IMG/VR virus record: IMGVR_UViG_3300037400_004417
From: a virus
Taxonomy: Duplodnaviria > Heunggongvirae > Uroviricota > Caudoviricetes
Strand: one strand, 5' to 3'
DNA: 64,000 nucleotides
Position 1 is the stretch's first letter; every line of letters begins with the position of its first letter. Under the pieces are notes generated by a model that had not been told where the DNA came from, made no database searches, and worked only from the letters and a program-made list of their open reading frames with translations. Shown here one piece after another: positions 5,289-57,560 of the stretch. The position numbers were made by a program, and so were the translations under genes.

Positions 5289-5824
5289 GCCTTGTAATCT
5301 GTAGTTCCCATTATAATATTAGCTATACATTGTAAACCAATACAAAGTTCTAAGGGTATATCAATAAAATAAATAGCTAATGCGGCGCCAAAGAATTGCC
5401 CACCTAAATTCCAAGCGGATTCAAACGACTCCCATTTAGTTAGGTTATCCCCTTTTATAATATTGTTAACAGCATTACGCATTAATACATACCAAAGATT
5501 TGTACTGACCGCATTAAGTACAGCTAAACCTAGAAACCTTACAGTAATATACTCCGTAGATAAGAATGAGACAATACAAAAGCATAATAAATCTATAATA
5601 ACTATGCTATAGAAATGTTTTTTGTACCATCTCATAATCCTGTCTACAGCAACTGAGCTATTAACTAAAGCAGCTAATCCCGTAGAAAGCATATTGGCGG
5701 CGGCAAATATTTCAGTAGATACTCTGGACACAAAATATATCTGAATGATAGGACTCGTTAAAGCAAAGATAAATGATACTAAAACAGGACCTGACAATAG
5801 ATAGAACTTTAGTTTATTGCTCAT
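5249..5824 (-). CDS. multi-pass membrane protein
   Basis: 191 aa, several hydrophobic helices. Confidence 0.45.
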   Translation of the reverse strand: MSNKLKFYLLSGPVLVSFIFALTSPIIQIYFVSRVSTEIFAAANMLSTGLAALVNSSVAVDRIMRWYKKHFYSIVIIDLLCFCIVSFLSTEYITVRFLGLAVLNAVSTNLWYVLMRNAVNNIIKGDNLTKWESFESAWNLGGQFFGAALAIYFIDIPLELCIGLQCIANIIMGTTDYKAWNMIWKGKDTKI

Positions 5825-13858: not shown

Positions 13859-14092
13859 GCACTTTTATTAATAACTTGAATTTCTTCAAGGATCGGACTA
13901 TATCTTTATGCTATTAATAGCATATCTTCCATTTGGATATATAAATCTACGAGCGTAATAGCTCTAGTCTCTGAACCGAGTATTCTTTAAGAATACGATG
14001 GCTGCTGATTGTCGGCGTCGTCAAATTCTTTTATTGACAACACTACGATTTCCAGCAATTAGGAAGATTTTACATGAGCTGTAGAAAAGTTA
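13859..14092 (-). ncRNA. group I intron, nrdD intron 3 (family A, ORF-less)
   Basis: S-like cggactatatcttt (13905) and gctgctgattgtc (13998) on plus strand; exon 3 ends GGT (U), intron ends G; joins ...FAAAMG to CRTRV. Confidence 0.6.
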
Positions 14093-14378
14093 ACCCATGG
14101 CTGCTGCAAAGGTACGATAATCTCCTTCTTTATAGTAAGGAGCATTAAATGATGAAGACGTATTAAGAAAATTAGGGAATAAACGCTTCGCACTTACTTT
14201 GCAAGCATACTGGAATAAATCATAATTAGGATCTCCTTTTTCAAGATTTATTCCTTTATGGATTTGGAATACAGATATTGGGAAAATTGCAGGCTCTCCT
14301 TTTCCCAATCCATTCCATACTGCTTCTAATAAATACTTAGATACTAATCTACCTTCCGGAGAAGTATCCATTCCGAAA
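14093..14378 (-). CDS. nrdD: NrdD exon 3
   Basis: continues the NrdD reading frame; stop at 14090 lies just inside the intron. Confidence 0.6.
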
Positions 14379-15850
14379 TTAATAGAGCTAAATGGTCAGT
14401 AAGTTATTATCTCATGGTTTTTTATCCATGACTCTGGAAGTTTCCTTCATTTGAAGTTATCTCATTAACTAGTCAATTCTAGTTCAGCTTGGCGTACATT
14501 TTCATCCTATTATTAAATAGGAGTAAGACACTCTTGGTTATATTTTATTCTATAAAATAGTTTCAATAACTACGCTCTACGATGATATTGTTTTTTACGC
14601 AATATTTATCTCGGTATTGACATATCTGCTATTATATTCTTGTATAGCGGCCATAGCCTTTTCGTATTTTCTAAATAAATAAGTTGTAGAATCTGTATAT
14701 AAATAATTTATTAATGCAATAACATCTTTCTTAGATGACCATTTAACGGAGAATATTCCTTTTTCATAACTTGGTTTATTAAATGCGATGTTTAATTTGT
14801 TTGATAAATAATTTCTAATATCGTATATAATATTATCATGTCCACAAAATACAATGTGCCATGAAGGATTACGGTTAGTTAAAATTCGTCTATAAATACT
14901 TCCATCTCCATCGAAATATCCTCTTATAAAATGTTTATACATTTCTTCTTTTAATGTAGGAAAAAAACGATTAGGTTTATAATTAACCATTCCATGTCTT
15001 TCTAAATGTTCTACAAATTCATTATTTGTTACACTAATAGAAGATTCATTTTTTCTTTTGTCTATGACAATTTTTCTAGGTGCTTTTATTAAATCCTTTA
15101 TTTTCTTTATCATATAACTATCAGATTCTTGCAATTCAATTGTGAAAAGTTTACTATTATTTTTATATTTATTTATGAAAATACATCCATCGGCAATAAA
15201 TAACCCTAATAAATAAGCTTTTTCTTCACTATCTATTTTTTCAAAAAAGTTAGTTATTAAACTTCCTCTATTTAAATCTTGTCGATTATAAATGGAAATA
15301 TTATTTCTTTCTAAAACTTTTTTTGCCGTTAATTCACATATATGAAATTGTTTTGATAAGGCCTTTATTGACATAGGTTTTGTTAAATAAAAATTTATTA
15401 TCTTATTGTCGTCCAATATTTTTTTATTCATAATTATTTCACCTCCTTTTATCTAAAATAGCAGATTTAGTTTTTACCGACATTGTCTTATTTAAAAAAT
15501 ACATTACTGTATTCTCAGGCTACCATGTTAACCTGCGAACCGGCTCTACTATGACCTAACTACCCTCGGTTTCCCGATATTTATTAGGGGAGTAGACTAT
15601 CTTTTCATTTCTTGTGAAATGTCTCATCTTTTGAATAATAATATTATTCTACTTCCATATTGGAATAGTCGTTACACTTTGCTTTATTATCAAAAAACAA
15701 AGCACGGTATTTGCAGCTATCCTTTTTTATTAAAAGGACCTTAGCGTCTCTTACGGAGCTGATTCGAGCACAATGCCTTATTTAACTCCTACCGTTAGCC
15801 TTAATTATTTATTAAGACACCCTATATTTATAGGTTAATGAGATTTTCCG
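14379..15850 (-). mobile_element. group I intron, nrdD intron 2 (family D), carrying a LAGLIDADG HEG
   Basis: core 15690-15840 is near-identical to the core of the UvrD-helicase intron at 26790-26940; boundaries approximate. Confidence 0.55.
14595..15431 (-). CDS. double-motif LAGLIDADG homing endonuclease with N-terminal HTH
   Basis: YLLGLFIADGCIF and IRGYFDGDGSIY motifs; 278 aa. Confidence 0.8.
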   Translation of the reverse strand: MNKKILDDNKIINFYLTKPMSIKALSKQFHICELTAKKVLERNNISIYNRQDLNRGSLITNFFEKIDSEEKAYLLGLFIADGCIFINKYKNNSKLFTIELQESDSYMIKKIKDLIKAPRKIVIDKRKNESSISVTNNEFVEHLERHGMVNYKPNRFFPTLKEEMYKHFIRGYFDGDGSIYRRILTNRNPSWHIVFCGHDNIIYDIRNYLSNKLNIAFNKPSYEKGIFSVKWSSKKDVIALINYLYTDSTTYLFRKYEKAMAAIQEYNSRYVNTEINIA

Positions 15851-16440: not shown

Positions 16441-16694
16441 GGTCTGACTATATCATCATCTGTATGTTTGCTATTAAAATACAGATGCTAGGCACTTCAT
16501 ATATAGAATACTACTTGGTTATCACCAATAGTCGATTGACGGTCTATATTGTAAATAATAGTTTCGCACAGGATAACGTCGTAATAACGCTTCCCCTGTT
16601 AGCCTATCTTCTAATCATCATTTTCTATGATTCCTAAACGTAAGACAGACACCCCAGATTTCTGGGTTCACCTAGTTTTTCCATCGTAACTCAC
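16441..16694 (-). ncRNA. group I intron, nrdD intron 1 (family C, ORF-less)
   Basis: S ctgactatatca (16442) and R tagtcgattgac (16535) on plus strand; almost identical to the 5-prime gyrA intron. Confidence 0.55.
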
Positions 16695-21373: not shown

Positions 21374-21816
21374 CATTAATGTTATTTAATTTCATTTATT
21401 TTATAAAAAAATAAAATTAAATTTCCTATATTTAGGACTCTGATTTTCATCAGAAGTTCAGACTATATCTTCATCCTTATAAAAAAGGAGTCGAGCATTT
21501 CGATTTAAAGGACTTTCACCTACCTGATACCAGGCCCTACTCCTATTGGCATTTCAGCCCACAATGGGATAGTCGTTGAACCTTCTCCTTACTCCACAAG
21601 TGAAGGAGCTTGGCTGCTGATCGTCGATTTTTATTTGAATTTTAGGACTATATTTTTTTATAGCTTTTATTTCACCATGATTCATTTTATTGTTTCTTTC
21701 AGTCTTTCGACAACATTCGCACTTATTATTTCTAATTATGCTGTAGTACAATAAACTTTACGATGTCCCAGCAATTAACTCGATTTTTTCCTACACATTA
21801 CTGTATAGGGAGACCC
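21374..21816 (-). ncRNA. group I intron (family A, ORF-less) in the SNF2 helicase gene
   Basis: S cagactatatctt (21460), R gatagtcgttgaacc (21573), gctgctgat (21612) on plus strand; proposed junction DEIN|IQYIKSD with exon end U and intron end G. Confidence 0.55.
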
Positions 21817-25760: not shown

Positions 25761-27000
25761 CTTTTTTATTTATTATATATACATTGATAAAAATACATGA
25801 ACATCATAGGTAATACATTTAATAATAAAAAACATCTCAAAGGAGTGTATACCTATGACAGAAAAACAGATATGTAAACAACAACAAATGATTGCGGCAG
25901 CAAATGAGTTTATCAAAGGAGCTAAACCGCAAGAAGTAATGAAAAAATACAATATATGTTATGCTTCCATTTGGAACACAATCAAAAGATATAATCTTCC
26001 TTACAAAAAGACATGGGGAAGAGAAATATTTTTTGATATTGATTTCTTTGAAAAAATTGATACAGAAGCAAAAGCTTATTGGTTAGGATTTATTTTTGCA
26101 GATGGTTCTGTAGTCAAAACAGACAAAAACTTACAAGAATATAATCGAGTATGTGTATCAATATCAGCAAAAGACATTGCCCACCTTCAAAAACTAGAAT
26201 CAATTCTTAATTTTTCTAAACCTAATAGAATCAAAATTTATAAAAAAACTCCAAATGCTTCATTTAAAAGTGAATATGACACTTGTTATCTTCATCTAAA
26301 TTCGATAAAATTATGTTCTGATATCATAAATCATGGTTGCGTTCCACAGAAAACATATGATACTACTCATAATCCACAAAATATCCCAGATCACTTAATA
26401 TGTCATTTTATAAGAGGATATTTCGATGGAGATGGAAGTATTTCTGGAAAACTAAAATCCCCAATGTTCAGTATTACGACATCAAAAAACCATAATGAAT
26501 GGATACAGTCTTATTTAATGCGTTTTTGCAATCTAAACAAGACTAAACTAACTTTTTGTCGCAATGCTTATCAATTAGATTATGGAGGAATAAATCAAAT
26601 TGTTCGTATTTTTCATTATTTATATGATGATGCTACTATTTATCTTGAACGTAAATATAATAAATTTTACTCTTATGTTTCTAATAGAGAACAGACTATC
26701 TCTTCATCCTTATCTGAAAAAGATAAGGAGCTCGGCACTTCGGCATAGGATTTTCACCACAGCCTACGAGAATCACTTCTCTAGTCGTTACACTCTTATA
26801 ATATTGTATATTATACTAGCACGGTATTTCCAGCTATCCTTTGTTTTGCAAAGGACCTTAGGTTCTCTTACGGAGCGTATTCAATATATTAACTCCTACC
26901 GTTAGCCCTCATTTTTAATAAATAAAACAAGGACACCCTATATTATATAGGTTCACCGAGGATTAATTATTCATTGCTGAATAAAAGAGCAATATAGTTT
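25761..27000 (-). mobile_element. group I intron (family D) in the UvrD-like helicase, with an antisense LAGLIDADG HEG
   Basis: exon 2 ends ...DADQS (AGT, U) at 27001; intron ends in G at 25761; exon 3 resumes IYSFRGA; core 26790-26940 is homologous to nrdD intron 2. Confidence 0.65.
25855..26748 (+). CDS. double-motif LAGLIDADG homing endonuclease, on the strand opposite to its host intron
   Basis: YWLGFIFADGSV and FIRGYFDGDGSIS; own RBS aaaggagtg. Confidence 0.8.
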   Translation: MTEKQICKQQQMIAAANEFIKGAKPQEVMKKYNICYASIWNTIKRYNLPYKKTWGREIFFDIDFFEKIDTEAKAYWLGFIFADGSVVKTDKNLQEYNRVCVSISAKDIAHLQKLESILNFSKPNRIKIYKKTPNASFKSEYDTCYLHLNSIKLCSDIINHGCVPQKTYDTTHNPQNIPDHLICHFIRGYFDGDGSISGKLKSPMFSITTSKNHNEWIQSYLMRFCNLNKTKLTFCRNAYQLDYGGINQIVRIFHYLYDDATIYLERKYNKFYSYVSNREQTISSSLSEKDKELGTSA

Positions 27001-27645: not shown

Positions 27646-27977
27646 CCAATTGTTATTAACCTACGGCTTTTTATCCGTAGCTCTGGAGGTTATCCTCATT
27701 TTCATCGGTTAGTCTTTTCTAACCCAGTGTAGCGTACCTTTTGCATATAGCTTCTATATTTAATATAGAAGTAAAACTGTAAATATGGACCGGCCTCTTG
27801 GGAACATTATATCTTTTCAGTTCCTACGCGTTGCTCCTCATCTTACTTTGCAAGATGTTCGGTTCTGATTAGGTTTATAACCCTTCCAGCTTAATTCCGG
27901 CCTAATAATTCAGAAACTTCATACAGTCTTTGTTTCTGAACGGCAATATTTAATGTAATTCATTACATTACACAATT
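27646..27977 (-). ncRNA. group I intron (family B, ORF-less) inside the Walker A codons of the UvrD-like helicase
   Basis: exon 1 ends GPGSG (GGT) and exon 2 starts AAA ACT (KT); intron ends G at 27646; family-B core motifs at 27670-27700, 27775-27830, 27860-27900. Confidence 0.65.
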
Positions 27978-29432: not shown

Positions 29433-29724
29433 CTAGATATTTTTATCCTATAGTTTTTTATCTATAGCTCTGGAGGTCGCCCTCATTTTCATCGGATGAT
29501 CAATACATCCCAGCATAGCATATCTTTTTATGTAGTTCTATATTGATTATAGAAATAGTACTGTAAACATAGAACGGTCTCTTGGTGAGATTATATCTTT
29601 TCACTCACTATGCGTTGCCCCTGACTTATCTTAAATAAGCCTTCGGTTCTGATTAGGTTTATAACCCTCCCAGCTTAATACCATTCTAATCATCGAGATT
29701 CTTCATACAGTCATTGAATCTCGA
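29433..29724 (-). ncRNA. group I intron (family B, ORF-less) in the AAA ATPase gene
   Basis: family-B motifs tctatagctctggaggtcgccctcattttcatcgg (29460), ggtctcttggtgagattatatcttttca (29575), cttcggttctgattaggtttataaccc (29640); boundaries approximate. Confidence 0.55.
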
Positions 29725-36691: not shown

Positions 36692-37747
36692 TTAATTATC
36701 ATCTGCAGAAATAACATCTTCTGCTGCAATAGCTGCGGCCAAATCTTCTGCTTCTGATACTTCTTCCACCGGCGTAACTTCTCTAATAGAGGAATGAGAT
36801 TTCTTGCTGGACCGCTTAGTTTTCTTTTCAGCCTGTTCAATAAGTTCATCTAATGCCTCCTCTTCTGCTTTTATTTCCTCAATTTCTTCAGAAGATAATT
36901 CGCTACCACCATAGACAAGATTGGTCAAAGCTTCAAACTTATCAGGATTATTCCTCATATCTTCTCTGAATGCAACTTTACCATTCCATTTATCTACTTC
37001 TTCGCCGTCACTATTGTACTGGCGAATCCATGCACCTTTCATTTCAAGTATGCCTTTTTCTATGCCAGAATTAAGAGCAGAGAAAATAGTCTCTACGCCT
37101 TCTCCAAATAAAGCATAGTATTCAAGTTTTGTATAGGCAAACTTTTCAGGACGAACATGGTTCTTCTTAATAGTTACGCCTATCTTTACGCCTTCTTCTT
37201 TTGTAATTGGTTCTCCGGGGCCAATACTTTTCTTTCTCAAATCTAAAGTAAGATGAGACCAGTGCTTGATTGCTTGACCGCCTTTAAGGACTAATGGATC
37301 TTTAGACATGGTTCCTATATTGGTGGATAAATGACCAATTAAAATAAAGGCTGTCTCGAATTCAGCAATTAAGGCATTAAACTTGCGGTAAATGCGACTA
37401 TTTAACCGGGCCTGAACTGCTACTGTCGCTCCTTCGAAAGATGCTTCTGCCTCCTGACTAGGTAAAATCGCAGATAAAGAATTAATACATACTAAATCAA
37501 TAGCACCTTCTGAACCTTTCATTACTTCATAAAGAGTATCTAAGATTTTTTCAGCTGGCATACTAGAATCAATTGGTATATAATAAAATCTATCTGGATC
37601 TATATGGAATGTATCACAAACATATTCTTTCGTTAAAGAATTTTCAGCCTCTACCCAAGTCGCAATAAAAGACTCTCCTCCTGGAGCATTCATCGCTTTT
37701 CCGATAGATTCTAATACAAGTGAAGTTTTCTTTTGTACCCTTGTTTT
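36692..37747 (-). CDS. recA: RecA recombinase, exon 2
   Basis: KTRVQKKTSLVLESIGKAM...IDLVCINSLSAILP...GATVAVQARLNSRIYRKFNALIAEFETAFILIGHLSTNIGTMSKDPLVLKGGQAIKHWSHLTLDLRK. Confidence 0.8.
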   Translation of the reverse strand, partial: KTRVQKKTSLVLESIGKAMNAPGGESFIATWVEAENSLTKEYVCDTFHIDPDRFYYIPIDSSMPAEKILDTLYEVMKGSEGAIDLVCINSLSAILPSQEAEASFEGATVAVQARLNSRIYRKFNALIAEFETAFILIGHLSTNIGTMSKDPLVLKGGQAIKHWSHLTLDLRKKSIGPGEPITKEEGVKIGVTIKKNHVRPEKFAYTKLEYYALFGEGVETIFSALNSGIEKGILEMKGAWIRQYNSDGEEVDKWNGKVAFREDMRNNPDKFEALTNLVYGGSELSSEEIEEIKAEEEALDELIEQAEKKTKRSSKKSHSSIREVTPVEEVSEAEDLAAAIAAEDVISADDN

Positions 37748-38113
37748 CACAATATTTATATTAGGGAATAGACTATATCTTTACCATATCTTATAGTTAA
37801 TATAAGACTTAGGCACTCTGCACTTCCATTTAAGGGATTCTCACCCATCCTGTAAACGCAGGACCGTACTCTTGTAGCTGATTTTCACAGCCCCTCGCGG
37901 GAGATAGTCGTTGAACCCTTTTTATGTATCCATAAAATTAGGAAGCTGATTGTCTTATGATAATGCATATATCACTTAGATTTTCCAGCATTTCACAGAG
38001 TTTCTTACCTTATTATTTCTAACAAGGATGGCTTCTATTTAAATAATAAAATTTTTTTCTTTTTTTAATAAATTGTTTGTTCTAAATTTTTATGCAATAT
38101 TTAAATAGATTTT
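37748..38113 (-). ncRNA. group I intron (family A, ORF-less) inside the recA Walker A codons
   Basis: exon 1 ends IEDSG (GGT, U), intron ends G at 37748, exon 2 starts AAA ACA (KT); S aatagactatatcttt (37775), R gagatagtcgttgaaccc (37900). Confidence 0.7.
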
Positions 38114-38374
38114 ACCACTATCTTCAATACCTGTAATAATAGAACATCTTCTTCTTGGAAAGCCTCCGCTTACTTTACCGCTAATAGCCTTATTTAAATC
38201 TGGGCAAGCGGTAGGAATATACTTAATAGAAAGTTTTTCTTCAATTTCAGGGTTCTTACCGATTCGCCCCATTATAGTCTTACCGAATTTCTTATTGACC
38301 TTGTCAGTGATTTTATCTAATAACAACATCTTTTCAGCCAAAGTCTTTTGTTTAATAGGTTCTAAACTTGCCAT
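38114..38374 (-). CDS. recA: RecA recombinase, exon 1
   Basis: KKFGKTIMGRIGKNPEIEEKLSIKYIPTACPDLNKAISGKVSGGFPRRRCSIITGIEDSG. Confidence 0.75.
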
Positions 38375-38961: not shown

Positions 38962-41106
38962 CTATACCTCCGCTTTTTCTTCTTCAATCTCGTCTTCCTG
39001 CATAGGAGCAGAACTTACACTAGCAATAATATCATCTTTTTGAAGATTAACTATTTTAGAACCAGTTGCTGTTCTACTCATTACTTTTATACTAGATGCT
39101 GGAATTCTTATAGTCATACCTAACTGTGTGACAACAAATATAGTTTTGTCGTCTTCAGCAATCAGTATAATATTAATGGCGCCAGTATTTTTAGTAGGCT
39201 TATAGTAAGAGACACCTTTGCTTCCTCGATTAGTAATTCTTATATCTTCAGCATTCATTCTCTTAGCTATACCTTTGTCAGTAACGATAAGAAGCTGATC
39301 TTTGTTATTAGCTTTTAATACAGATACTACATAATCAGAATCATCTTTAAACTTAATTCCTGTTACTCCAGCTGCCGCACGCCCCATTAATCTTATATTA
39401 GATACAGGAGTTCTCACGGCAAAACCATTATTTGTAGCCAATAATACGATATCATTATCTTCTACTAAAGTACAGCCAATAATACTATCATCATCTTTAA
39501 TATTTATGACTTTAGCTCCAGATTTTGTAGAAGGCAAATCTTTAACAGAAAGTCTCTTACATAAACCTTTCTTTGAAGCGAAGAATAAAGTAACATTATC
39601 ATCATTTTCCTTAATCGGAACAATATTAATGATTTTTTCACTTTCTTCTAAAGAAACATAGTTTTGAACATATTTGCCAACAGATTTCTTTGATACAATA
39701 GGTATCTGATATGCCGGCAAAATATAAGCCTTACCTATATTAGTAATAAAGACCAAATTATCATGATTAGTTAAAGATATAATATTCTCAACAAAATCAT
39801 CATCTACTAACTTAGAAGATACTCCCTTGCCATTTTTCTTCTGAGCATTATATTCATTAGTTTTAACAGCTTTAATGATCCCTTTATGAGTAATCATTAT
39901 CATGATATCTTCTTTGGCAATATAATCTTTATCTGTTAAGGAATTTGTAGTCTCGCAAGATATCTCAGTAAGTCGTTCTTCCTTTTCGAATTTTACGGCA
40001 ACTTCATTTAATCTCAACTTTGTTTCATTAAGAAGCTCGAAATCATCATTAAGAATATTCGTTAAGTGTTGTATTTCTTTTGTAAGATTATTTATTTCTT
40101 CATTATATTCATCTATACTAATTTTCTTTAATGTTCTAATTTGTCTAGATAATATCGCAGAAGTTTGTTCTTCGTCTAAAGAATATAAGTCGTTAAATTT
40201 AGACACTATTTCTTCATCGCTATTTGCTTCTTTTATAATGTCTATAACTTCATTAATATTTGGAGTGATTATAGCAAAACCTTCCAAAATATGTAATCTC
40301 TTCTGTTTTCGCGGCAAATCATATTTTATTTTATTCCTTATAATTTCAATAGAATGCTCTAAGAATATTTCTAATAATTCTTTTAAAGTTAAATGTTCTC
40401 TAATTTTACCTTTAACCAAAGCTTGATGATTCATAGAAACAGTTGTCGCCATTTCTGTATCTTTTAATAATTTATTAATGGTAAGTTCAGTATTCACATT
40501 TTTCTTTAAATCTATAACTACCCTTATTCCATCTCGATCAGATTCGTCTCTTACTTCTTTTATGTCTGGAATAATATTATCTTTTCTAAGTTCATCTATT
40601 TTAGATACTAATCTAGATTTTATAACGCCAAAAGGAATTTCTGTAATAATAATACTTTCATTTCCCTTTTTGTCTATTTCTGTATGATACTTAGAACGAA
40701 TCTTTACAGATCCTTTTCCTTCTTTATATCCTTGATGAATCTCTTTTAATGATGTTATAATACCACCAGTAGGAAAATCTGGAGCTTTTATTATATCGAT
40801 TAATTCATCGTCTGTATATTCTTCTCCCTCTAATGTCTTATCTATTATATGATTAACAGCTTTGTAAACATCTTTAGCCATATGAGGAACAAAAGACGTC
40901 CCCATACCTACTGCTATACCACTTACGTAAGAACATAAGAGATTAGGGAATAATCCACTAAGGACAACAGTTTCTTTTTCTGATTCATCATAATTAGGTA
41001 CGAAATCTACAGTACCTTTATCTAAATCCGTCAGCATTAAATCGCCATATACTGATAATCTTCCTTCCGTATATCGCATCGCCGCCGGAGGGTCACCATC
41101 TAAATT
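38962..41106 (-). CDS. gyrA: DNA gyrase/topoisomerase IV subunit A, exon 3
   Basis: NLDGDPPAAMRYTEGRLS, VDFVPNYDESE, GIAVGMGTSF, C-terminal beta-pinwheel repeats (GRAAAGVTGIKF). Confidence 0.8.
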   Translation of the reverse strand, partial: NLDGDPPAAMRYTEGRLSVYGDLMLTDLDKGTVDFVPNYDESEKETVVLSGLFPNLLCSYVSGIAVGMGTSFVPHMAKDVYKAVNHIIDKTLEGEEYTDDELIDIIKAPDFPTGGIITSLKEIHQGYKEGKGSVKIRSKYHTEIDKKGNESIIITEIPFGVIKSRLVSKIDELRKDNIIPDIKEVRDESDRDGIRVVIDLKKNVNTELTINKLLKDTEMATTVSMNHQALVKGKIREHLTLKELLEIFLEHSIEIIRNKIKYDLPRKQKRLHILEGFAIITPNINEVIDIIKEANSDEEIVSKFNDLYSLDEEQTSAILSRQIRTLKKISIDEYNEEINNLTKEIQHLTNILNDDFELLNETKLRLNEVAVKFEKEERLTEISCETTNSLTDKDYIAKEDIMIMITHKGIIKAVKTNEYNAQKKNGKGVSSKLVDDDFVENIISLTNHDNLVFITNIGKAYILPAYQIPIVSKKSVGKYVQNYVSLEESEKIINIVPIKENDDNVTLFFASKKGLCKRLSVKDLPSTKSGAKVINIKDDDSIIGCTLVEDNDIVLLATNNGFAVRTPVSNIRLMGRAAAGVTGIKFKDDSDYVVSVLKANNKDQLLIVTDKGIAKRMNAEDIRITNRGSKGVSYYKPTKNTGAINIILIAEDDKTIFVVTQLGMTIRIPASSIKVMSRTATGSKIVNLQKDDIIASVSSAPMQEDEIEEEKAEV

Positions 41107-42237
41107 CATTTTGTTAATCGTTAAGTTTTTTATCTTAACTCTATATCTTGCGATACAGATCAGCATATATTTTTACGTATTTTTATCATTACTTCAAACG
41201 TAATCCGGTCTCTTGGTAGAATTATATCTTTTCATCTACTATGCGTTGCCCCTGAATATACTTAGTATATCCTTCGGTTCGCGTTTTCCTTGTTCAGGAT
41301 TTTCACGTTTAATACCAGATTAATAATCTAATTTCTTCATGAAGTTTTTGAAACTAGACGGCAAAAATTTAAATATCTATTGTATTTTCTGTCTAAATAA
41401 ATAGTAGCATCAGAATACATAAAATTTAATGCTTTTAAGATTTCTTGTTTTGCTGATATTCTGTATATGTATACATTTTTTCTAAATTTTACTTTGTAAG
41501 TAGTTTTTACACCAGCTAAACGTTCAAAGATATCTTTTATGTATTCCAATATATCTTTCCCCATGCCAAAACCTATTTCTCTATAATTATAGCCATAAGT
41601 TATCCATCCATCTCCATCAAAAATACCCCTTATATAATGATGAATAAGGTGTTCTGGAATTTGTTTTGCTGGCCTTTCGTTTAAAGTTTTAACACTGGAA
41701 AATCCTAAATTTATCAGGGCTTGATGTAAATGTTTATTAGTAATAGTTAATGTACTAACTAAAGCGGTATCACTATATCCACCACTTTTTCTGATTTCAA
41801 TCGGATGTTCAGATTCAATCGATTTTTTAAACTTTTCAACATGATTATGATCTGAATGCATAAGACTTAATCTAATTCCATTGCTCGATTTAAAAATACA
41901 ACCATCTGCGGTTAATAAACCAAGCCAATATGCTTTTTCTTCAGTGTCTATTACATCAAAGTAATTTTCATTTACATCATATATTCCCCGGATTTCATAT
42001 CTATTGTATTCTTTTAAATATTTGGCTAAAGTATCTCTTGATACTCCTAAATCTTTAGCACATTGGGTAATGCTTAGATCTTTATGTTGAGAAAAGTAAT
42101 TTACTGCATCTTCCCAAAATTTTTCGAGCATTTTTTGTTTGTTTAACATTTAAGAACACTTCTTTCTGTGGAAATAGTATACTTAAATTATTACCAAACA
42201 GCTTTAATGCTTTATACATAGATGTTTAAATTTGTTT
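41107..42237 (-). mobile_element. group I intron, gyrA intron 2 (family B-like core), carrying a LAGLIDADG HEG
   Basis: micro-exon ends ...QGNHG (GGT, U) at 42238; intron ends G at 41107; family-B motifs ccggtctcttggtagaattatatcttttca (41205) and ccttcggttcgcg (41270). Confidence 0.6.
41337..42149 (-). CDS. double-motif LAGLIDADG homing endonuclease with N-terminal HTH
   Basis: YWLGLLTADGCIF and YIRGIFDGDGWI. Confidence 0.8.
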   Translation of the reverse strand: MLNKQKMLEKFWEDAVNYFSQHKDLSITQCAKDLGVSRDTLAKYLKEYNRYEIRGIYDVNENYFDVIDTEEKAYWLGLLTADGCIFKSSNGIRLSLMHSDHNHVEKFKKSIESEHPIEIRKSGGYSDTALVSTLTITNKHLHQALINLGFSSVKTLNERPAKQIPEHLIHHYIRGIFDGDGWITYGYNYREIGFGMGKDILEYIKDIFERLAGVKTTYKVKFRKNVYIYRISAKQEILKALNFMYSDATIYLDRKYNRYLNFCRLVSKTS

Positions 42238-42333
42238 ACCATGGTTTCCCTGCATATCTACTAATGGATATCTTTGTTTAAAATCCTGAGACATATTTAC
42301 CATTGCTTCATATACTGATTGATCTCCATGAGG
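42238..42333 (-). CDS. gyrA: gyrA micro-exon (32 codons: [32 protein letters not shown])
   Basis: supplies the conserved PHGDSAVYD..RY.LVDGQGNFG block missing between the flanking exons; absent from the ORF track. Confidence 0.65.
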
Positions 42334-42635
42334 CAATTATATTACAAATATAATCTGACTATATCATCATCTTTGTTTTATACCAAAGAGCTAGGCGCTT
42401 CATGACAAGGAAATTCACCTTATTCATTACACTCTTATTTGAGTTAGTCGATTGACCTACTATTATATATAATAGATTGGCACAGGATAAAGCTAATTCA
42501 ACTGTCCCCTGTTAGCACTATCATTATATGTCATTTCCTACATACACAATTAATCGTTGATAGCACACCTTACATAATTATAAGTTCACCTAGTTTTCAT
42601 TATGATTCTCATCATAATGCCACCCGATTTCACAA
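42334..42635 (-). ncRNA. group I intron, gyrA intron 1 (family C, ORF-less)
   Basis: exon 1 ends ...GRYH (CAT, U) at 42636; intron ends G at 42334; S ctgactatatca (42357), R tagtcgattgac (42440); about 85% similar to nrdD intron 1. Confidence 0.65.
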
Positions 42636-42866
42636 ATGGTATCGCCCGAGGCATTCACCTACTGTTCTTGCACTCTTTTTATATGAAGTATTAGCATGTA
42701 GTCCTAATCCATTTAAAGACTGAAGTATTCTTCTCTGCACTGGTTTTAAACCATCTTCTGCAGCTGGAATGGCTCTTCCTTCAATTACGTCTTTTGCATA
42801 CAATAAATAATTCGTATACATATGTTCCGCAAAAGAAACTTCTTCTATATTTTTAACTTCGTTCAT
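42636..42866 (-). CDS. gyrA: DNA gyrase subunit A, exon 1
   Basis: [11 protein letters not shown]...[15 protein letters not shown]. Confidence 0.75.
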
Positions 42867-42884
42867 GGTCGTATTTCCTCTCTA

Positions 42885-43556
42885 TTATTCTGAAATATTA
42901 TTTTCTGCGTTAATAACTTCAATAGAGTTAGCAGAAATTTCCTGTACAGAATATTCTAAAATATGGCCATTTTCTTCTTTACTGTAAGTTCTTGTCTGGA
43001 AACGTCCAATAGCTTTAATTTCGTCTCCAATTTTTAGATTCTTGGCTTCTTTTGCGACATTCCCCCAGCAAATTACGGGAATATAAAAACTCTTATTTCT
43101 CTTTAAATTGCACGCTACTGTTAAGTCTGTAATATATCTGCCAGTCTTAGATGTTTTACGGTATCTTGGTTCTTTAGAAATATAGCCTGTTAATTCAATA
43201 ATGTTTTGAGTTTTTCTTTCTGGTACTCTTTCATCGGAAAGAATATTATATTCTCTAACATATCCATAAACAAATCTATAACTACGCTCATTGAAAGTTC
43301 TATATTTAACTCTAACATCTCCTTTGACTTCAATAAAATCTCCTACTTTAATAGGAGTGGCCTTGATTAAGTCATTAGAAATTGTTAAAGGTAAAACATC
43401 AGTAGTACTGCTTAAACGATCAACTTCAAGCTTAATATTTGTATAACTATTTTCGTTGTTTTTACTAATATTATCTTCAATTTCTAAAACAACACCGTAA
43501 AGATACATCTTATTTTCATTAATATTTACTTGACTCATAAAAAACGTACACTCCAA
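42885..43556 (-). CDS. SSB-like protein with two OB-fold regions
   Basis: C-terminal half NIIELTGYISKEPRYRKTSKTGRYITDLTVACN...VICWGNVAKEAKNLKIGDEIKAIGRFQTRTY is a canonical SSB OB fold. Confidence 0.45.
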   Translation of the reverse strand: MECTFFMSQVNINENKMYLYGVVLEIEDNISKNNENSYTNIKLEVDRLSSTTDVLPLTISNDLIKATPIKVGDFIEVKGDVRVKYRTFNERSYRFVYGYVREYNILSDERVPERKTQNIIELTGYISKEPRYRKTSKTGRYITDLTVACNLKRNKSFYIPVICWGNVAKEAKNLKIGDEIKAIGRFQTRTYSKEENGHILEYSVQEISANSIEVINAENNISE

Positions 43557-43632: not shown

Positions 43633-43797
43633 TCATAAATTTTGAAGAATATATTCTCTTCTTGCTTCTACATTATTACTCATACAAATTTCTAAAGCAT
43701 TTGCGGCGCTTTCACAATCATCTATCGTGATTCTCTTTAATCTGGCAATTTCAGGATTCATGGTTGTCTCCCAAAGCTGTTCAGGATTCATTTCTCC
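43633..43797 (-). CDS. gyrB: DNA gyrase subunit B, exon 4 (C-terminus)
   Basis: minus-strand translation (L)GEMNPEQLWETTMNPEIARLKRITIDD...; no ATG, so absent from the ORF track. Confidence 0.7.
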   Translation of the reverse strand, partial: GEMNPEQLWETTMNPEIARLKRITIDDCESAANALEICMSNNVEARREYILQNL

Positions 43798-44058
43798 TAC
43801 ATGTTTTTTCTTATGTTACCATAAGCACTGACTATTTCTTCGTTGAATATTTCAACGTTATCTTTTTCCCAATGCGTATCAATAGCATCAGTACTTCCCG
43901 ACAAAGGGAATAGTCGATACAGGATTAAGTATTTTTTACTTTTTCCCACGAGACATTCCTAAAAATATTTAGGACGGCCCTCGTTAGCTATATTAATGGT
44001 AATTATTAATATAACCCCGCTGATAAACGGAAAAGATAATAAGGGCTCGGATTCTCTA
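43798..44058 (-). ncRNA. group I intron, gyrB intron 3 (short, ORF-less)
   Basis: exon 3 ends KG + T (U), intron ends G at 43798; together these restore RYKGLGEMNPEQLW; R/S-like ggaatagtcgatac and cactgactatttc. Confidence 0.55.
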
Positions 44059-44275
44059 ACCCTTTATAGCGACTTACGCTATAACCATTCGTATCAAAAG
44101 CGTCCAATTCTTCTTTTGTATATAAATAATGTACTTCTTCTTTGTTTTTACTTATCTTCCTTGATACTTTAAATAGTGGTGGACAAGCCGCATATAAATA
44201 TCCAGCTTCTATAATAGGTCTCATATAATGATAAAAGAACGACATATGTAAGCAAGCAATATGCCCGCCATCAAC
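44059..44275 (-). CDS. gyrB: DNA gyrase subunit B, exon 3
   Basis: VDGGHIACLHMSFFYHYMRPIIEAGYLYAACPPLFKV...RYKG. Confidence 0.75.
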
Positions 44276-45446
44276 CGATTATACCCTTGCTTTTGCAATA
44301 TTTAAAAATTCATCATATATTTCTTTTTTTCTATCTAAATAAATGGTTGCATCTAAATACATAATGTTTAAAATTTTATATAATTGAATATTTCCTCCAA
44401 TATGTAATTCAAATGCATTATTATGAGGTACGATTTTTAAATTGTTTTTATTGAAATAACTAGATATACCTTTTAACATATCTTTAGTTCCAGTAAAACC
44501 CAAACAATATTTTTTTTGGTTATTGTAATTGTAATATGATAAAGATCCATCACCATCAAAATATCCTCGAATAAAATGATGTATTAAATCTTTCGGAACA
44601 ATATTGTCTGTTGGAAAATTTAATAAATATGTTTTGTGTTCGGCAACACCTTTATCTTTTAAATCATTTACAGTTTTGCTACTTGTTAACAGTATTTTTG
44701 CGAACATATTTTCTTTTGCAAATCCACTACCTTTATATATTTTAATAGGATTTGTAGCTTCAATATCTTTTTTAAATTTATATAAATGATTTATCTCTGA
44801 ATGTTTTAAAGTTATACCTATTTTTTGATTTGAATTTTCTCTTTTTGATTCAATAAAACCATCAGCATATAAAAATCCTAACCAATAAGCTTTATGCTCT
44901 GTATTTATTGTTTCAAAAAAAGATTCATTATGAAAATATTTTCTAGAATTTATAGAATTATTTCTAATTGTGATATTATGTTCTTTTAAAATATTCGATA
45001 GAGTTTTTCTATCATGATTGTATTTCTTTTCTAAAGAACGTAAAGATATGTTATTTTCATAATCAACAATTAAATTTTGCAATTCATTTATTGATAGATT
45101 TAATTTTTTTGCCATAAATACCATTCCTTTGTTATATATTTATATATTTATTACTACAAAGTAAATGATATTTATACAAATGGCGTAAATATATTTAATG
45201 TATAGGGTCTAGATCATATCTTCACCATATTTTTATATTGTCATAAAAACTTAGGTTGCTCCACTTCCTTCTTAAAATATATTATTTAGAAGTAAGTCCG
45301 AATGGACTGATCGTTGAACCTTCTTTATTTATTATAAAGATTGGCTGCGAATTGTCCATTTAATTTAAATAATAAAAAATGGATATCCTCGCAATTCAGA
45401 GCTCTTTAAATTATATCTTTCGATATAATACGACTGTTAAAATTCA
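44276..45446 (-). mobile_element. group I intron, gyrB intron 2 (family A), with a LAGLIDADG HEG whose stop lies 3 nt from the 3-prime splice site
   Basis: exon 2 ends ...MNDAD (GAT, U) at 45447; intron ends G at 44276; S ctagatcatatcttca (45215), R gactgatcgttgaacc (45307), ggctgcgaattgtcc (45343). Confidence 0.7.
44279..45124 (-). CDS. double-motif LAGLIDADG homing endonuclease with N-terminal HTH
   Basis: YWLGFLYADGFI and FIRGYFDGDGSLS. Confidence 0.8.
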   Translation of the reverse strand: MVFMAKKLNLSINELQNLIVDYENNISLRSLEKKYNHDRKTLSNILKEHNITIRNNSINSRKYFHNESFFETINTEHKAYWLGFLYADGFIESKRENSNQKIGITLKHSEINHLYKFKKDIEATNPIKIYKGSGFAKENMFAKILLTSSKTVNDLKDKGVAEHKTYLLNFPTDNIVPKDLIHHFIRGYFDGDGSLSYYNYNNQKKYCLGFTGTKDMLKGISSYFNKNNLKIVPHNNAFELHIGGNIQLYKILNIMYLDATIYLDRKKEIYDEFLNIAKARV

Positions 45447-46646
45447 ATCTGCATCGTTCATTAATATTATCTTATGATATCTTAATTTATCTAAATTAAA
45501 TTCTTCGCCTATCCCACACTTTAAAGCCTTTACTAAATCCATAATTTTTGGGCTTTTTAAAATTTTATCTAAGGTAGTTTTAGTAGAGTTTAAACCTTTA
45601 CCAAAAAATGGCAAGATTGCTTGAGTTCTTCTATCTCTTCCACCTTTAGCACTACCTCCTGCAGAATCGCCCTCTACTATAAATAGCATACATTCTTCGG
45701 GATTTTTAGAGCTACAGTCTGCTAATCCTTCTACGTGTCCACTATCTATAGCTTTAACACCTCTAGCGGTATCACGTGCTTTTCTAGCTGCTTCTCTAGC
45801 TTTTGCAGCCTTTAAAACTTTTTCAATAATTAAAGTACTTCTATTTTTATCTTGAGATAAGAAATCATATATATATTCTTCTATAGCCTCTTTTACGGAA
45901 GAATATATGTTTTTCATTCTAAGACGGCCTTTTCCCTGTCCTTCAAAAACAGGGTCCTTTAATTTAACAGAGACTATAGCTGTTAAACCTTCCTGACAAT
46001 CATCACTCGTGATTTGGCTAGCTTCTTTGATATGATTATATTCTAAAGCATATTTTCTAATTGCGTTAAATAATCCTGCTTTAAACCCTGTCTCATGATC
46101 GCCACCATAAATAGTGATTACATCATTAACGAAAGATTTAATATTAGGAGAAAATGTTTCAATATAAGACATAGCTATATCTATATCGACATTTCTCTCT
46201 ATATTCTCATTATTAAACTTTATAGTATACTGAGACGTCTTAGAGAAACTAATAGGTTCCAGTATCGGTGTTTTATTTGCGATAGATTCTTTTACATATC
46301 CAATTAATCCCTCCGGATAACAATAAGATTCATCTATCTTTACCGGCTTATTATCCTTATCTACAGAATCTACATAATAATTTAAAGTTAACCCTGGATT
46401 TAAATAGGCTAATCTTTTTATATGTTTATTTAATTCGATAAAATCGAACCATTCATCTTGCCATATATCTGAATCAGGGATAAAATGTATTTCTGTTCCC
46501 GTTACATCTTTCTCTATCTGTTCTCCTGTTTCATATAAAGGCTTCGTTAATAATCCTTTAGAATATTCAATAGCATATTCTTTTCCATTAGTTCTAACTA
46601 CTGCTTTAAAGAAATCAGATGTAGCATTTACACAACTTATACCTAC
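45447..46646 (-). CDS. gyrB: DNA gyrase subunit B, exon 2 (transducer and Toprim)
   Basis: VGISCVNATS..., EGDSAGGSAKGGRDRRTQAILP, KLRYHKIILMNDAD. Confidence 0.8.
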
Positions 46647-46902
46647 CATTTATGTTCGATTAAGGTCGCTAATCTTAATCCGTTCTCCTACGAACTGCTT
46701 TATGTTTCCATAAAGATCAGACTATATCTTTTTCGATTTTTCTTGAAAGTTTCTGTTTCCATTCGCTTGAATGTACGGCTTATTGCCTAGTCGTTGAACT
46801 CTATTATATAATATCAGCTGCTGATTGTCCTTATATTATAATATAAGGGGATTCCAGCATTTAAGAAACTTTTACAACGGCATATTTTTTTTATGCGGTT
46901 TT
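46647..46902 (-). ncRNA. group I intron, gyrB intron 1 (family A, ORF-less)
   Basis: exon 1 ends ...SGLNG (GGT, U) at 46903; intron ends G at 46647; exon 2 starts VGISCVNA, restoring GLNGVGISCVNA; S cagactatatcttt (46715), R gcctagtcgttgaac (46790), gctgctgattgtcc (46817). Confidence 0.7.
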
Positions 46903-47238
46903 ACCGTTTAAACCTGAAGTATTTGTTGTGTATCCATCTTGTGATGAAAACTTGCCACCTGCATGTAAAGAGCCTATTGCAAGCTCAATTTGACGTTTAT
47001 CTTCATATCCTGGAGTTTTAGAATATCCAATAGGGATACCGCCGCCATTATCTTCTACGATAACTTCTTTATCTATGATAGCGGTGGTTATGATAGAACA
47101 TCTCCCGGCGCTCGCTTCATCTCTAGAATTATCTAAAGCCTCATTAATACAATGATCAATAGAAGGGAGATACATTCCTCTTCTCATTCTAACATTGTCT
47201 GGAAAATCTAATACGCTTATTTGTGCTTGTTCCGCCAT
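46903..47238 (-). CDS. gyrB: DNA gyrase subunit B, exon 1 (GHKL ATPase N-terminus)
   Basis: VRMRRGMYLPS...EALDNSRDEA...VEDNGGGIP...LHAGGKF. Confidence 0.8.
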
Positions 47239-49874: not shown

Positions 49875-50262
49875 CTAATTATTTTTATCTTGCGATTTTT
49901 TATTCGCAACTCTGGAGATTGCTCTCATTTTCATCGATTAGTTATTTCCAATCCAGTATAGCATACCTTTTTATATAGTCTTTAATAAAATCATTAAAGA
50001 TTCAACTACAAATATAAAGCGGCCTCTTGGGAGTATTATATCTTTTCAACTCCTATGCGTTGCCCCTGGTTAAACGAATTATTATTTTACGTTTATCATT
50101 AATTTCCGGCATTATCCTTTATATAATTTAGCTACTTAAATTTGTAGCACCTTCGGTTCTGATTAGGTTGTATTTAACCCTTCCAGCTTAATTCCGCTTT
50201 TATAATCTATGGCTTTCTTGTAGTCTTTAACCATAGACGGCTATTTGTTTTTCAAATAAATA
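49875..50262 (-). ncRNA. group I intron (family B, ORF-less) in clpX
   Basis: exon 1 ends ...SSTG + TT (U) at 50263; intron ends G at 49875; the join restores TGFVGRD (ClpX AGYVGED); family-B motifs at 49895, 50010, 50150. Confidence 0.7.
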
Positions 50263-54766: not shown

Positions 54767-55120
54767 CTAAACCTTAACGATCTTGAAAATATAAACATTT
54801 TCTCCATTCTGATACAGTATTGCATCATAAGCATCTATATATGAATCTGCTTTGCTATCCTCACTTAACCCTTCTTTTGGGATATAAGAATTATATTTTA
54901 AAACCATTTTGTTATAAGCATCCTCATATCTGTAAAATACCATAGTATCGATATCATAGCCATCAGTTTCGATAAGGATATATTTACTTTCTTTTTCTAG
55001 AATAATATCATACATTTTCTGCAGAGTATCATTGCTTTTCTGATTCTGCTCAAGACTTTTCTTAAAGTACTCTATAGCATAATATAGAAATTCCTTTTCT
55101 GCTCTAGTTTCAAATAACAT
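54767..55120 (-). CDS. hypothetical protein
   Basis: 117-aa ORF. Confidence 0.4.
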   Translation of the reverse strand: MLFETRAEKEFLYYAIEYFKKSLEQNQKSNDTLQKMYDIILEKESKYILIETDGYDIDTMVFYRYEDAYNKMVLKYNSYIPKEGLSEDSKADSYIDAYDAILYQNGENVYIFKIVKV

Positions 55121-55346
55121 CAGTCCACTTCCCTTATACTATCTTTGTCAGCTTCCGCTACGATAAATTTGTAAAAATATTACTACTTCTATAAATTTAT
55201 ACTTTAATACTTCTCACGAAGTATTTTCCTCGTTCATCGAATCCGATTTCGCCGAAGCTATTCTCGTTTGATATAATTCTCCGGAGGCTTAAATTCCCTA
55301 GTAGCGATAGGTACACGTTTAAGTGTTCTTCGAAAATTGAACGTTC

Positions 55347-57299: not shown

Positions 57300-57560
57300 T
57301 TACTGTCACCAGCAGACCTCCTTGTCTTTCGACAAGGCGCAGACTATATCTTCATCCTTCGCGATAAATCGCGGAGGAGCAGTATTTTTCTTCCGCCCTT
57401 AGCTTCCGGTTTTACTCTCCCTCAAGGAGATAGTCGTTGGAGGTCCCGCGTATCTTGATTTTTTAATCAAGACTTAGCGGTTTCCCTGCTAAACACCCAT
57501 TGTTTACGATACTTAGGACTGACGTTTCTAGACGGTCACTATTTATATTTCATCTAGTAC
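57300..57560 (-). ncRNA. orphan group I intron-like core (family-A R/S elements) with no recognisable host exons
   Basis: S gcagactatatcttcatcc (57340) and R ggagatagtcgttggagg (57430) at family-A spacing; unusually GC-rich; lies between the IS607 and a small upstream gene. Confidence 0.3.

Follow-up and report, generated by a model that had tools for sequence, protein, structure and literature searches.

Two candidate group I introns of different classes around a 32-codon micro-exon in the gyrA gene of a gut phage

The window studied here, a 64-kb stretch of DNA from an AT-rich gut phage of the Caudoviricetes (64,000 nucleotides; IMG/VR record IMGVR_UViG_3300037400_004417), carries a gyrA gene whose coding sequence is divided into three pieces by two intervening sequences. 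We estimate a probability of about 0.9 that mobile group I introns of two different classes have invaded this gene, one after the other or independently, on two occasions. The evidence supports the assignment of the first and the second intervening sequence (IVS1 and IVS2) to two different classes of group I-type introns, and of the 96-nt piece between them to a real internal exon. The arrangement of two introns around a 32-codon micro-exon had been proposed in a sequence-only reading of the stretch and is borne out by the joined protein, in which the Pfam profile PF00521 gives a single match.

Layout and coding continuity of gyrA

All splice-site coordinates and all exon and intron letters were read off the minus strand of the window, and the positions proposed earlier were all recovered there. 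Exon 1 (42636..42866) comprises 77 codons (M..GECLGRYH), the final ones being CGA TAC CAT, with the last T (U in the RNA) at 42636. It is followed by IVS1 (42334..42635), an IA2-like group I intron of 302 nt from 'family C' without an open reading frame (ORF), which starts with TTGTGAAAT and ends with ..TATAATTG, its G lying at 42334. The micro-exon (42238..42333; PHGD..QGNHG) has a terminal GGT codon with the last T (U) at 42238. IVS2 (41107..42237), a group I intron of 1131 nt from 'family B', is IA-like with a single P7.1, holds an ORF in its P1 loop and ends with ..AAAATG, the G being located at 41107. Exon 3 (38962..41106) opens with AAT TTA GAT GGT GAC (NLDGD; NLDGDPPAAMRYTE..) and runs to the stop codon. 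The U at the exon ends and the G at the intron ends, already pointed out in the sequence-only reading, place both introns under the U(-1)/terminal-G rule, with a splice-site U·G pair formed with the internal guide sequence. In both cases the gyrA frame stops just past the 5' junction (CAT/TTG TGA and GGT AAA CAA ATT TAA).

Joining the three pieces results in a GyrA protein of 823 amino acids. Its match to DNA_topoisoIV (PF00521) is unbroken (residues 31-469 of the protein against positions 1-425 of the profile, E=2e-129), and six GyrA C-terminal repeats come after it. The motif AAMRYTE with the catalytic tyrosine lies in exon 3, as does the C-terminal beta-propeller. The alignment to other GyrA proteins that had been suggested as a check showed the joined protein to be colinear with uninterrupted homologues (tblastn). 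The micro-exon corresponds to residues 79-110 of E. coli GyrA, that is to the quinolone-resistance-determining region with helix alpha4; its 32 residues are present in every homologue compared, and it is provided with neither a start codon nor a ribosome-binding site. The intron-free homologues P0002-P0012 (48-57% identity) encode GRLHPHGD..GN.GS.DGD without interruption, and the 19-mer predicted for the ligation of exon 1 to the micro-exon, GATACCATCCTCATGGAGA, is found uninterrupted in about 17 gyrA genes from JGI metagenomes that encode GRYHPHGD. In public gene calls the gyrA of this lineage appears as two or three unrelated ORFs, and the micro-exon, which had been described as easy to miss, is omitted or assigned a false TTG start. 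Because the gene calls split gyrA and miss or mis-start the micro-exon, an annotation based on them would count the gyrase as broken or missing.

A search with exon 3 led to a protein, P0001, which is 99% identical and begins MPHGDRSVYEAM..MQGNHGNLDGDPPAAMRYTE. Its initial 'M' is an artefact of the gene caller, the codon being a TTG at the end of IVS1. The contig encoding P0001 (L001, from a human gut metagenome) contains SSB, gyrA exon 1 and the 302-nt IVS1 with few substitutions. It lacks IVS2 exactly (..CATGGT/AATTTAGAT.., ..AACCATGGT AATTTAGATGGT..), and its micro-exon continues in frame into exon 3. The empty site leaves a 2-nt ambiguity (AA), and only the proposed register yields both U(-1) and the terminal G (omega G). 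The protein encoded by IVS2 occurs on three further contigs from independent runs, one of them 100% identical to the window across 4701 nt (L284) and two at 98.9% without gaps (L285 and L286). Each of the three has the full set of four junction sequences, and the two-intron layout is not an assembly artefact. Samples in which the two-intron strain occurs include SRR12668996 and ERR15880664.

The divergence between strains was calculated for the window versus L285 and L286. Exon 3 shows 41 differences in 2145 positions (1.9%), with 32 synonymous versus 8 non-synonymous codons, while all three differences within the 96 nt of the micro-exon are synonymous in the proposed frame. Strain SNPs are located in the micro-exon at 42304, 42265 and 42259. 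In IVS1 3-4 of 302 positions differ, all of them located in loops or changing G·U to A-U. IVS2 differs at 2 of 1131 positions (0.18%), about ten times below the adjacent exon 3.

Codon 5 of the micro-exon (42319-42321, minus strand) is the equivalent of Ser83 of E. coli GyrA, the main quinolone-resistance position, and encodes Gln in the window and Arg in L001; the equivalent of Asp87 is Glu in the phage GyrA. The phage enzyme may be intrinsically insensitive to quinolones.

Ribozyme folds, proposed splicing and alternatives

Because the Rfam model RF00028 recognises neither intron, the folds were built by hand and checked by covariation. For IVS1 (all positions on the minus strand, here and for IVS2) the fold starts with P1, as given by the minimum free energy (MFE) fold, in which the exon CCAU and the intron UUG pair with the guide CGGGUGG (42626-42620). 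It continues with P2 (42619-42598, GAGA loop), P3 (42593-42587 with 42397-42391, CUAGGUG/CGCCUAG), two extra hairpins between P3 and J3/4 that are supported by covariation (42584-42569 and 42566-42515), P4-P5 (42512-42482), P6/P6a (42481-42455), P7 (42449-42445 with 42361-42357), P7.1 (42444-42431), P7.2 (42426-42402), P8 (42389-42370) and P9 (42354-42336), and it closes with the omega G at 42334. The unconstrained MFE fold recovers all nested helices including P1 (z=-3.46). The joining segments followed by the two strands of P7, J6/7-P7 (GUCAAUCGACUA) and J8/7-P7' (GAUAUAGUC), are both near the RF00028 consensus. Across 25 members of the IVS1 class, 90.8% of the cells of 48 pairs are paired versus 32-48% in slid controls, and compensatory changes are found in P3 (5 of 7 pairs), in the first extra hairpin (4 of 5), in the second one (7 of 9 pairs in its outer part, 6 of 7 in its inner part) and also in P6. 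P7.1 and P7.2, the hallmark of subgroup IA, are seen in the single-sequence fold and were omitted from the covariation test, as this stretch was misaligned by MAFFT. The two extra hairpins are connected by the conserved linkers GAAC .. GUGU .. GCUAA (42515-42584 and 24 other aligned sequences). To our knowledge the position between P3 and J3/4 is empty in textbook IA2 introns such as T4 td and Twort, and a literature name for hairpins at this place, including P3.1/P3.2, was not found.

The ribozyme of IVS2 lies mostly 3' of its ORF. Its guide and core follow the reading frame, and therefore the ORF was placed in the loop of P1, in which the exon AUGGU and the intron AAA pair with the guide UUUGCCGU (41365-41358). 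The fold further comprises P2 (41357-41328), P3 (41320-41314 with 41209-41203, AUCUGGU/ACCGGAU), P4 (41307-41304 with 41283-41280), P5 and P6/P6a between P4 and P7, P7 (41244-41240 with 41167-41163, GCAUA/UAUGC), P7.1 (41239-41216) with a conserved 14-nt loop UGAAAAGAUAUAAU, P8 (41202-41174), P9 (41158-41141), P9.1 (41139-41120) and the omega G at 41107. Applied to 29 members of the IVS2 class, RNAalifold recovered P3, P4, P5, P6, P6a, P7.1, P8 and P9.1 unaided. When the P7 pseudoknot is added, 96.3% of the cells are paired versus 33-42% in slid controls, and none of 500 shuffles matched the observed value. Compensatory changes are present in 33 of 43 pairs, including the pseudoknot, where P7 covaries in L005a, and P7.1 contributes changes in three of its four stem pairs and in one more pair of the loop region. 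The same helices are obtained in the MFE fold of 41370-41107 (z=-3.85). An alternative P7 (UUCUA/UAGAG), derived from a chance CAAGAUAUAG, was ruled out by comparison with L002, L003 and L005, which led to the covarying GCAUA/UAUGC. A guide placed some 130 nt away from the 5' splice site in L005a was likewise rejected, since the guide follows the ORF in all endonuclease-bearing copies.

According to the proposed mechanism, gyrA would be transcribed as a single pre-mRNA in which each intron folds into its own ribozyme. The 5' splice sites would be chosen by pairing of the guides with the last 4-5 exon bases (CCAU/GUGG for IVS1, AUGGU/GCCGU for IVS2), and each intron would excise itself by two guanosine-dependent transesterifications, ending at its terminal G. 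Ligation of exon 1, micro-exon and exon 3 should restore an intact GyrA, in which the micro-exon would provide the DNA-gate helix beside the catalytic tyrosine. The expected junctions are CGATACCAT/CCTCATGGAG between exon 1 and the micro-exon and AACCATGGT/AATTTAGATG between the micro-exon and exon 3. Because the micro-exon is of sufficient length to keep the two P1/P10 interactions from overlapping and because the guides differ, we infer that the two introns should splice independently and that exon skipping is disfavoured.

Several observations weigh against this assignment. RF00028 gave no match in 40900-42900 at E<=10 and so misses IVS1 as well as IVS2, and at the same threshold it does not match the endonuclease-free member of the IVS2 class in L002 (3731-4003) either. 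Since this member is missed too, the failure is not due to the ORF insertion alone, and the group I membership of both introns rests on our own fold and covariation analysis. In the IVS1 class P4 and P7 are invariant and gain no covariation support, and P8 is only 48% paired, the MAFFT alignment being shifted in register. The P10 pairings comprise just 2 bp. An allele without IVS1 was not found among the close relatives, and for this reason the boundary of IVS1 rests on protein homology and the U/G rule. Finally, splicing of the gyrA pre-mRNA is predicted here from the DNA sequence. Plausible contributors to the RF00028 result are the hairpins at J3/4, the 770-nt P1 loop and the divergent sequences of P7 and J6/7. 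No RF00028 match was obtained in the scanned gyrA-locus relatives (L002, L003, L005) or in the window copies of both classes, and this model has been described as incomplete for phage introns (PMC11878797).

The RF00028 result, the reliance on DNA for splicing and the separate ORFs given by the gene callers of public assemblies would also fit a fragmented or decaying gyrA. Both introns would then be inactive relics that have lost the ability to splice, and GyrA would be non-functional or consist of separate polypeptides like the T4 topoisomerase subunits. We regard such a decay as very unlikely, because the micro-exon encodes an indispensable helix and could not be started on its own. Moreover, the exons are in frame and under purifying selection, as judged by the predominance of synonymous changes in exon 3 and their exclusive occurrence in the micro-exon. 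The ribozyme helices are intact, with strain substitutions that spare or repair the stems, and the layout has been maintained in strains which are 1.1% diverged.

It could also be assumed that the 96 nt are intronic and belong to one composite intron (42635-41107), or that exon skipping dominates and delivers a GyrA without residues 79-110. The frame would survive the loss of the 96 nt, and for Twort orf142 and phage SIOphi skipping has been documented between group I introns arranged in tandem (PMC11878797). In our case a skipped product would show the exon 1/exon 3 junction GATACCAT/AATTTAGA. However, a single larger intron, which the sequence-only reading had named as the contrary outcome, is excluded by L001, where the micro-exon is contiguous with exon 3 in one ORF. 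Furthermore, the 32 residues occur in every homologue and change only synonymously, the guides appear to fit only their own 5' exons (CCAU for IVS1, AUGGU for IVS2), and the P10 partner of IVS1 mismatches exon 3. We therefore hold both variants to be highly improbable and keep to two separate group I introns around a genuine micro-exon.

A translational bypass is known from gene 60 of the T4 topoisomerase, and inteins occupy the exact IVS2 site (QGNFG/C..) in other gyrA genes, but inteins, group II introns, bypass elements and an assembly chimera are already refuted by the in-frame stops just past both 5' junctions, the missing Hint domain, the length of 302 nt, far below group II intron size, the lengths of 302 and 1131 nt, far above a 50-nt bypass, the agreement of three independent assemblies, and the covarying P3/P7 pseudoknot topology of group I.

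The IVS2 endonuclease, homing and insertion sites

The ORF of IVS2 (41337..42149, minus strand) encodes 270 amino acids with a double LAGLIDADG motif, readable as YWLGLLTADG and IRGIFDGDG, and with an N-terminal helix-turn-helix. The endonuclease gene that had been noticed in the second intron is confirmed by the matches to PF14528 (E=6e-10, 39.6 bits at a cut-off of 22.5) and to PHROG 4645 'endonuclease' (E=5e-50), from which we infer the activity of a LAGLIDADG homing endonuclease. The protein shares 52.5% identity with the endonuclease of the gyrA intron in L003, whose insertion site is located 9 nt upstream, 38% with the ORF in the gyrB intron of the same window, and 28-30% with the endonucleases of introns at the G81 site. 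With its last ten codons (..NFCRLVSKTS*) the ORF extends over the guide and into the 5' strand of P2 (41337-41365, minus strand), and its stop codon falls in the P2 loop, while the ORF of the L003 intron reads on through P3 and stops in J3/4. Because the 3' end of the ORF lies inside the ribozyme, translation and ribozyme folding should interfere with each other. The proposed cleavage target of the endonuclease is the IVS2-less sequence of the L001 type (..CAGGGAAACCATGGTAATTTAGATGGTGAC.. / ..ATGCAGGGAAACCATGGTAATTTAGATGGTGACCCT..).

IVS2 is present in L284, L285 and L286 and absent in L001. Because it is about ten times less diverged than the adjoining exon and is missing in a strain of 99% identity, the comparison points to recent homing and to an element that is mobile in the population. 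IVS1, which has no endonuclease gene, looks vertically inherited. Megablast of the gyrA locus against phage genomes gave no match, blastn with IVS1 against phage genomes gave none either, and a protein-seeded scan of IMG/VR for close gyrA relatives found none.

Related metagenomic phages with a GyrA identity of 42-48% keep the gene order gyrB-SSB-gyrA-..-recA-UDG, and their gyrA genes are also interrupted, always by members of the IVS2 class. In E. coli numbering these introns are inserted after G75 (L002), after G81 (L005, L278, L279 and L281) and after G107 (L003, L005 and L280). In the window IVS1 follows H78 and IVS2 follows G110, a site seen here only. In total five insertion sites are located within 36 codons, all of them in the quinolone-resistance-determining region. 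In each of the eight gyrA introns related to IVS2 the guide is GCCGU, and the preceding exon ends in (U/C)GGU. In L005 (2444-3988) another micro-exon of 26 codons (DTSVY..IDVHG, DTSVYDALINMSQDFNYHYPLIDVHG) lies between two introns of the IVS2 class, the first of which carries a LAGLIDADG gene, and the public gene call omits this micro-exon as well. Inteins were found in four gyrA genes from JGI data that are uninterrupted at H78 (L288, L292, L300 and L305); they read ..GQGNFG/CFTKDT.. and share the codon boundary of IVS2 after G110. In one related lineage a TnpB-like gene (OrfB_IS605 and Cas12f-like TNB) is located between SSB and gyrA (L003:1273-2511 and L004:1273-2511).

A single lineage of the IVS2 class hopping within gyrA is not supported, as IVS2 has at most 69% core identity to every other copy, whether from gyrA or not. 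Introns at the same gyrA site cluster at 80% core identity. Because of this clustering, and because IVS2 is no closer to other gyrA introns than to those of other genes, the pattern looks like repeated independent colonisation and not like hopping within the gene. One could go further and regard the 36 codons of the DNA gate as a recurrent landing pad, with many lineages of one intron class with the GCCGU guide settled independently at the Gly-GGU codons G75, G81, G107 and G110, a second class at H78, and micro-exons arising by successive colonisation. The guide, and not only the endonuclease, would then set where introns settle, be it by reverse splicing or by selection of splice-competent ectopic insertions. 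We consider this extension speculative and rather unlikely; if true, the pairing of different intron classes would protect against exon skipping.

The families C and B-like of the sequence-only reading turned out to be two paralogous classes, each with more copies in the window and with at least 120 contigs in IMG/VR. For the IVS1 class this number comes from an exact-pattern scan with the P4-P5 signature, for the IVS2 class from the core 16-mer CAGGGGCAACGCATAG, which occurs across many different genes. An intron count relying on RF00028 only would miss these two very abundant phage classes. Loci of both classes in IMG/VR are L042-L121 and L162-L273, several of which hold two or three copies within 0.5-1.5 kb (e.g. 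L178, L171, L188 and L226), so that tandem introns with short exons may be common. Weak blastn matches place the IVS2 class in the crAss-like phages cr7_1 and cr131_1, in Bacillus phage BpSp and in Twort-like staphylococcal phages. A copy of the IVS2 class in phi116 is unannotated, lies upstream of the portal gene and adjoins a coding sequence annotated as 'endonuclease'; we took the stretch holding it to be a split terminase.

Counting the two in gyrA, profile and Rfam searches bring the group I introns of the window to at least 12, all on the minus strand and about one per 5 kb, which is denser than the published average of gut jumbo phages. Of these, only the RF00028 matches at 13874-14148 and 46698-46920 pass the Rfam gathering cut-off. 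By profile search, cores of the IVS2 class are located at 14402-14575 (weak), 27651-27907, 29438-29684 and 49885-50204, and cores of the IVS1 class at 16441-16677, 21456-21592, 26689-26960, 37766-37925 and 57339-57478.

On the same strand gyrB (43633-47238) is also in pieces, comprising the ORFs 46891-47238, 45444-46649 (GyrB and the start of Toprim, ending with ..NDAD), 44006-44245 and 43633-43791 (C-terminal end). The interruptions are the RF00028 intron at 46698-46920, an ORF for a LAGLIDADG protein of 281 amino acids (44279-45124) and one further gap, and they vary among L284, L285 and L286. RecA appears to be split too (36692-38374, minus strand), into an N-terminal ORF of 94 amino acids (38090-38374, ..GGFPRRRCSIITGIEDSGK) and one of 352 amino acids starting from position 64 of the RecA profile. 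The IVS1-class core at 37766-37925 separates the two, and recA of L279 is split alike, with an IVS1-class match at 6801-7079. The window further contains a full-length Rfam match to the RAGATH-18 RNA motif (55226-55287, minus strand; 66.4 bits at a gathering score of 44.9, E=5e-11) in the intergenic gap upstream of ORF 54767-55120. A single ORF of 765 amino acids (5821-8118, minus strand) unites a P-loop kinase with a calcineurin-like phosphatase and an RNA ligase of the T4 Rnl1 type and looks like a fused tRNA-repair enzyme (Pnk plus Rnl).

Comparison with known systems

Phage genes with several introns and small internal exons have already been published (PMC11878797, PMC12880540); the gyrA described here is an ordinary example of them with no new mechanism, and the current understanding of group I intron function is unchanged by it. 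Tandem introns from different classes can be studied here in a clean natural setting, since both are present in some strains, the first only in another, and other combinations are found in relatives. A report of group I introns in phage gyrA was not found in the full-text literature, the coverage of which is incomplete.

The closest parallels come from Twort and the Bastillevirinae, for which genes with multiple introns, small internal exons found only by cDNA and exon skipping between tandem introns are described (PMC11878797). Twort orf142 has three group I introns (Landthaler & Shub 1999, as cited in PMC11878797), the ribonucleotide reductase of phiNIT1 has a small exon between two introns, and the terminase of SIOphi is also a multi-intron gene (PMC11878797). 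Common to these genes and gyrA are several IA-type introns in one essential gene, small exons missed by annotation, and endonucleases in some of the introns. They differ in the gene and in the two classes involved here, and in that splicing and skipping were shown there by cDNA, while splicing is predicted here from DNA.

In gut jumbo phages of the Jug group nrdD is found in four fragments and a genome holds a mean of 18.5 group I introns (PMC12880540); crAss-like gut phages are likewise rich in introns (PMC7886860). These phages resemble ours in their origin from gut metagenomes and in a dense set of short introns of group I, accompanied by free-standing or intron-encoded endonucleases, in genes for replication and packaging, and the crAss-like genomes cr7_1 and cr131_1 share the IVS2 class. 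Unlike in the Jug phages, the local density in the window (at least 12 introns in 64 kb) is above the Jug average. The phage collection contained no DNA nearly identical to the gyrA locus.

In comparison to the IA2 introns of phages (T4 td, nrdB and nrdD/sunY; Twort) the order of the helices is the same, P1-P2-P3-P4-P5-P6-P7-P7.1(-P7.2)-P3'-P8-P7'-P9, and many class members are located in nrdD, as is T4 sunY. In contrast to these introns neither gyrA intron has an RF00028 score, in the IVS1 class a pair of covarying hairpins, not known from td and Twort, is inserted between P3 and J3/4, and the IVS2 class has GCAUA/UAUGC as P7 and a lone P7.1 with its conserved 14-nt loop.

GyrA inteins, finally, are selfish elements in the most conserved part of gyrA as well, and in four metagenomic genes they share the codon boundary of IVS2. 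While inteins leave the protein, the phage gyrA element is proposed to leave the RNA. The quinolone-resistance region of gyrA thereby joins the sites which are targeted by both introns and inteins.

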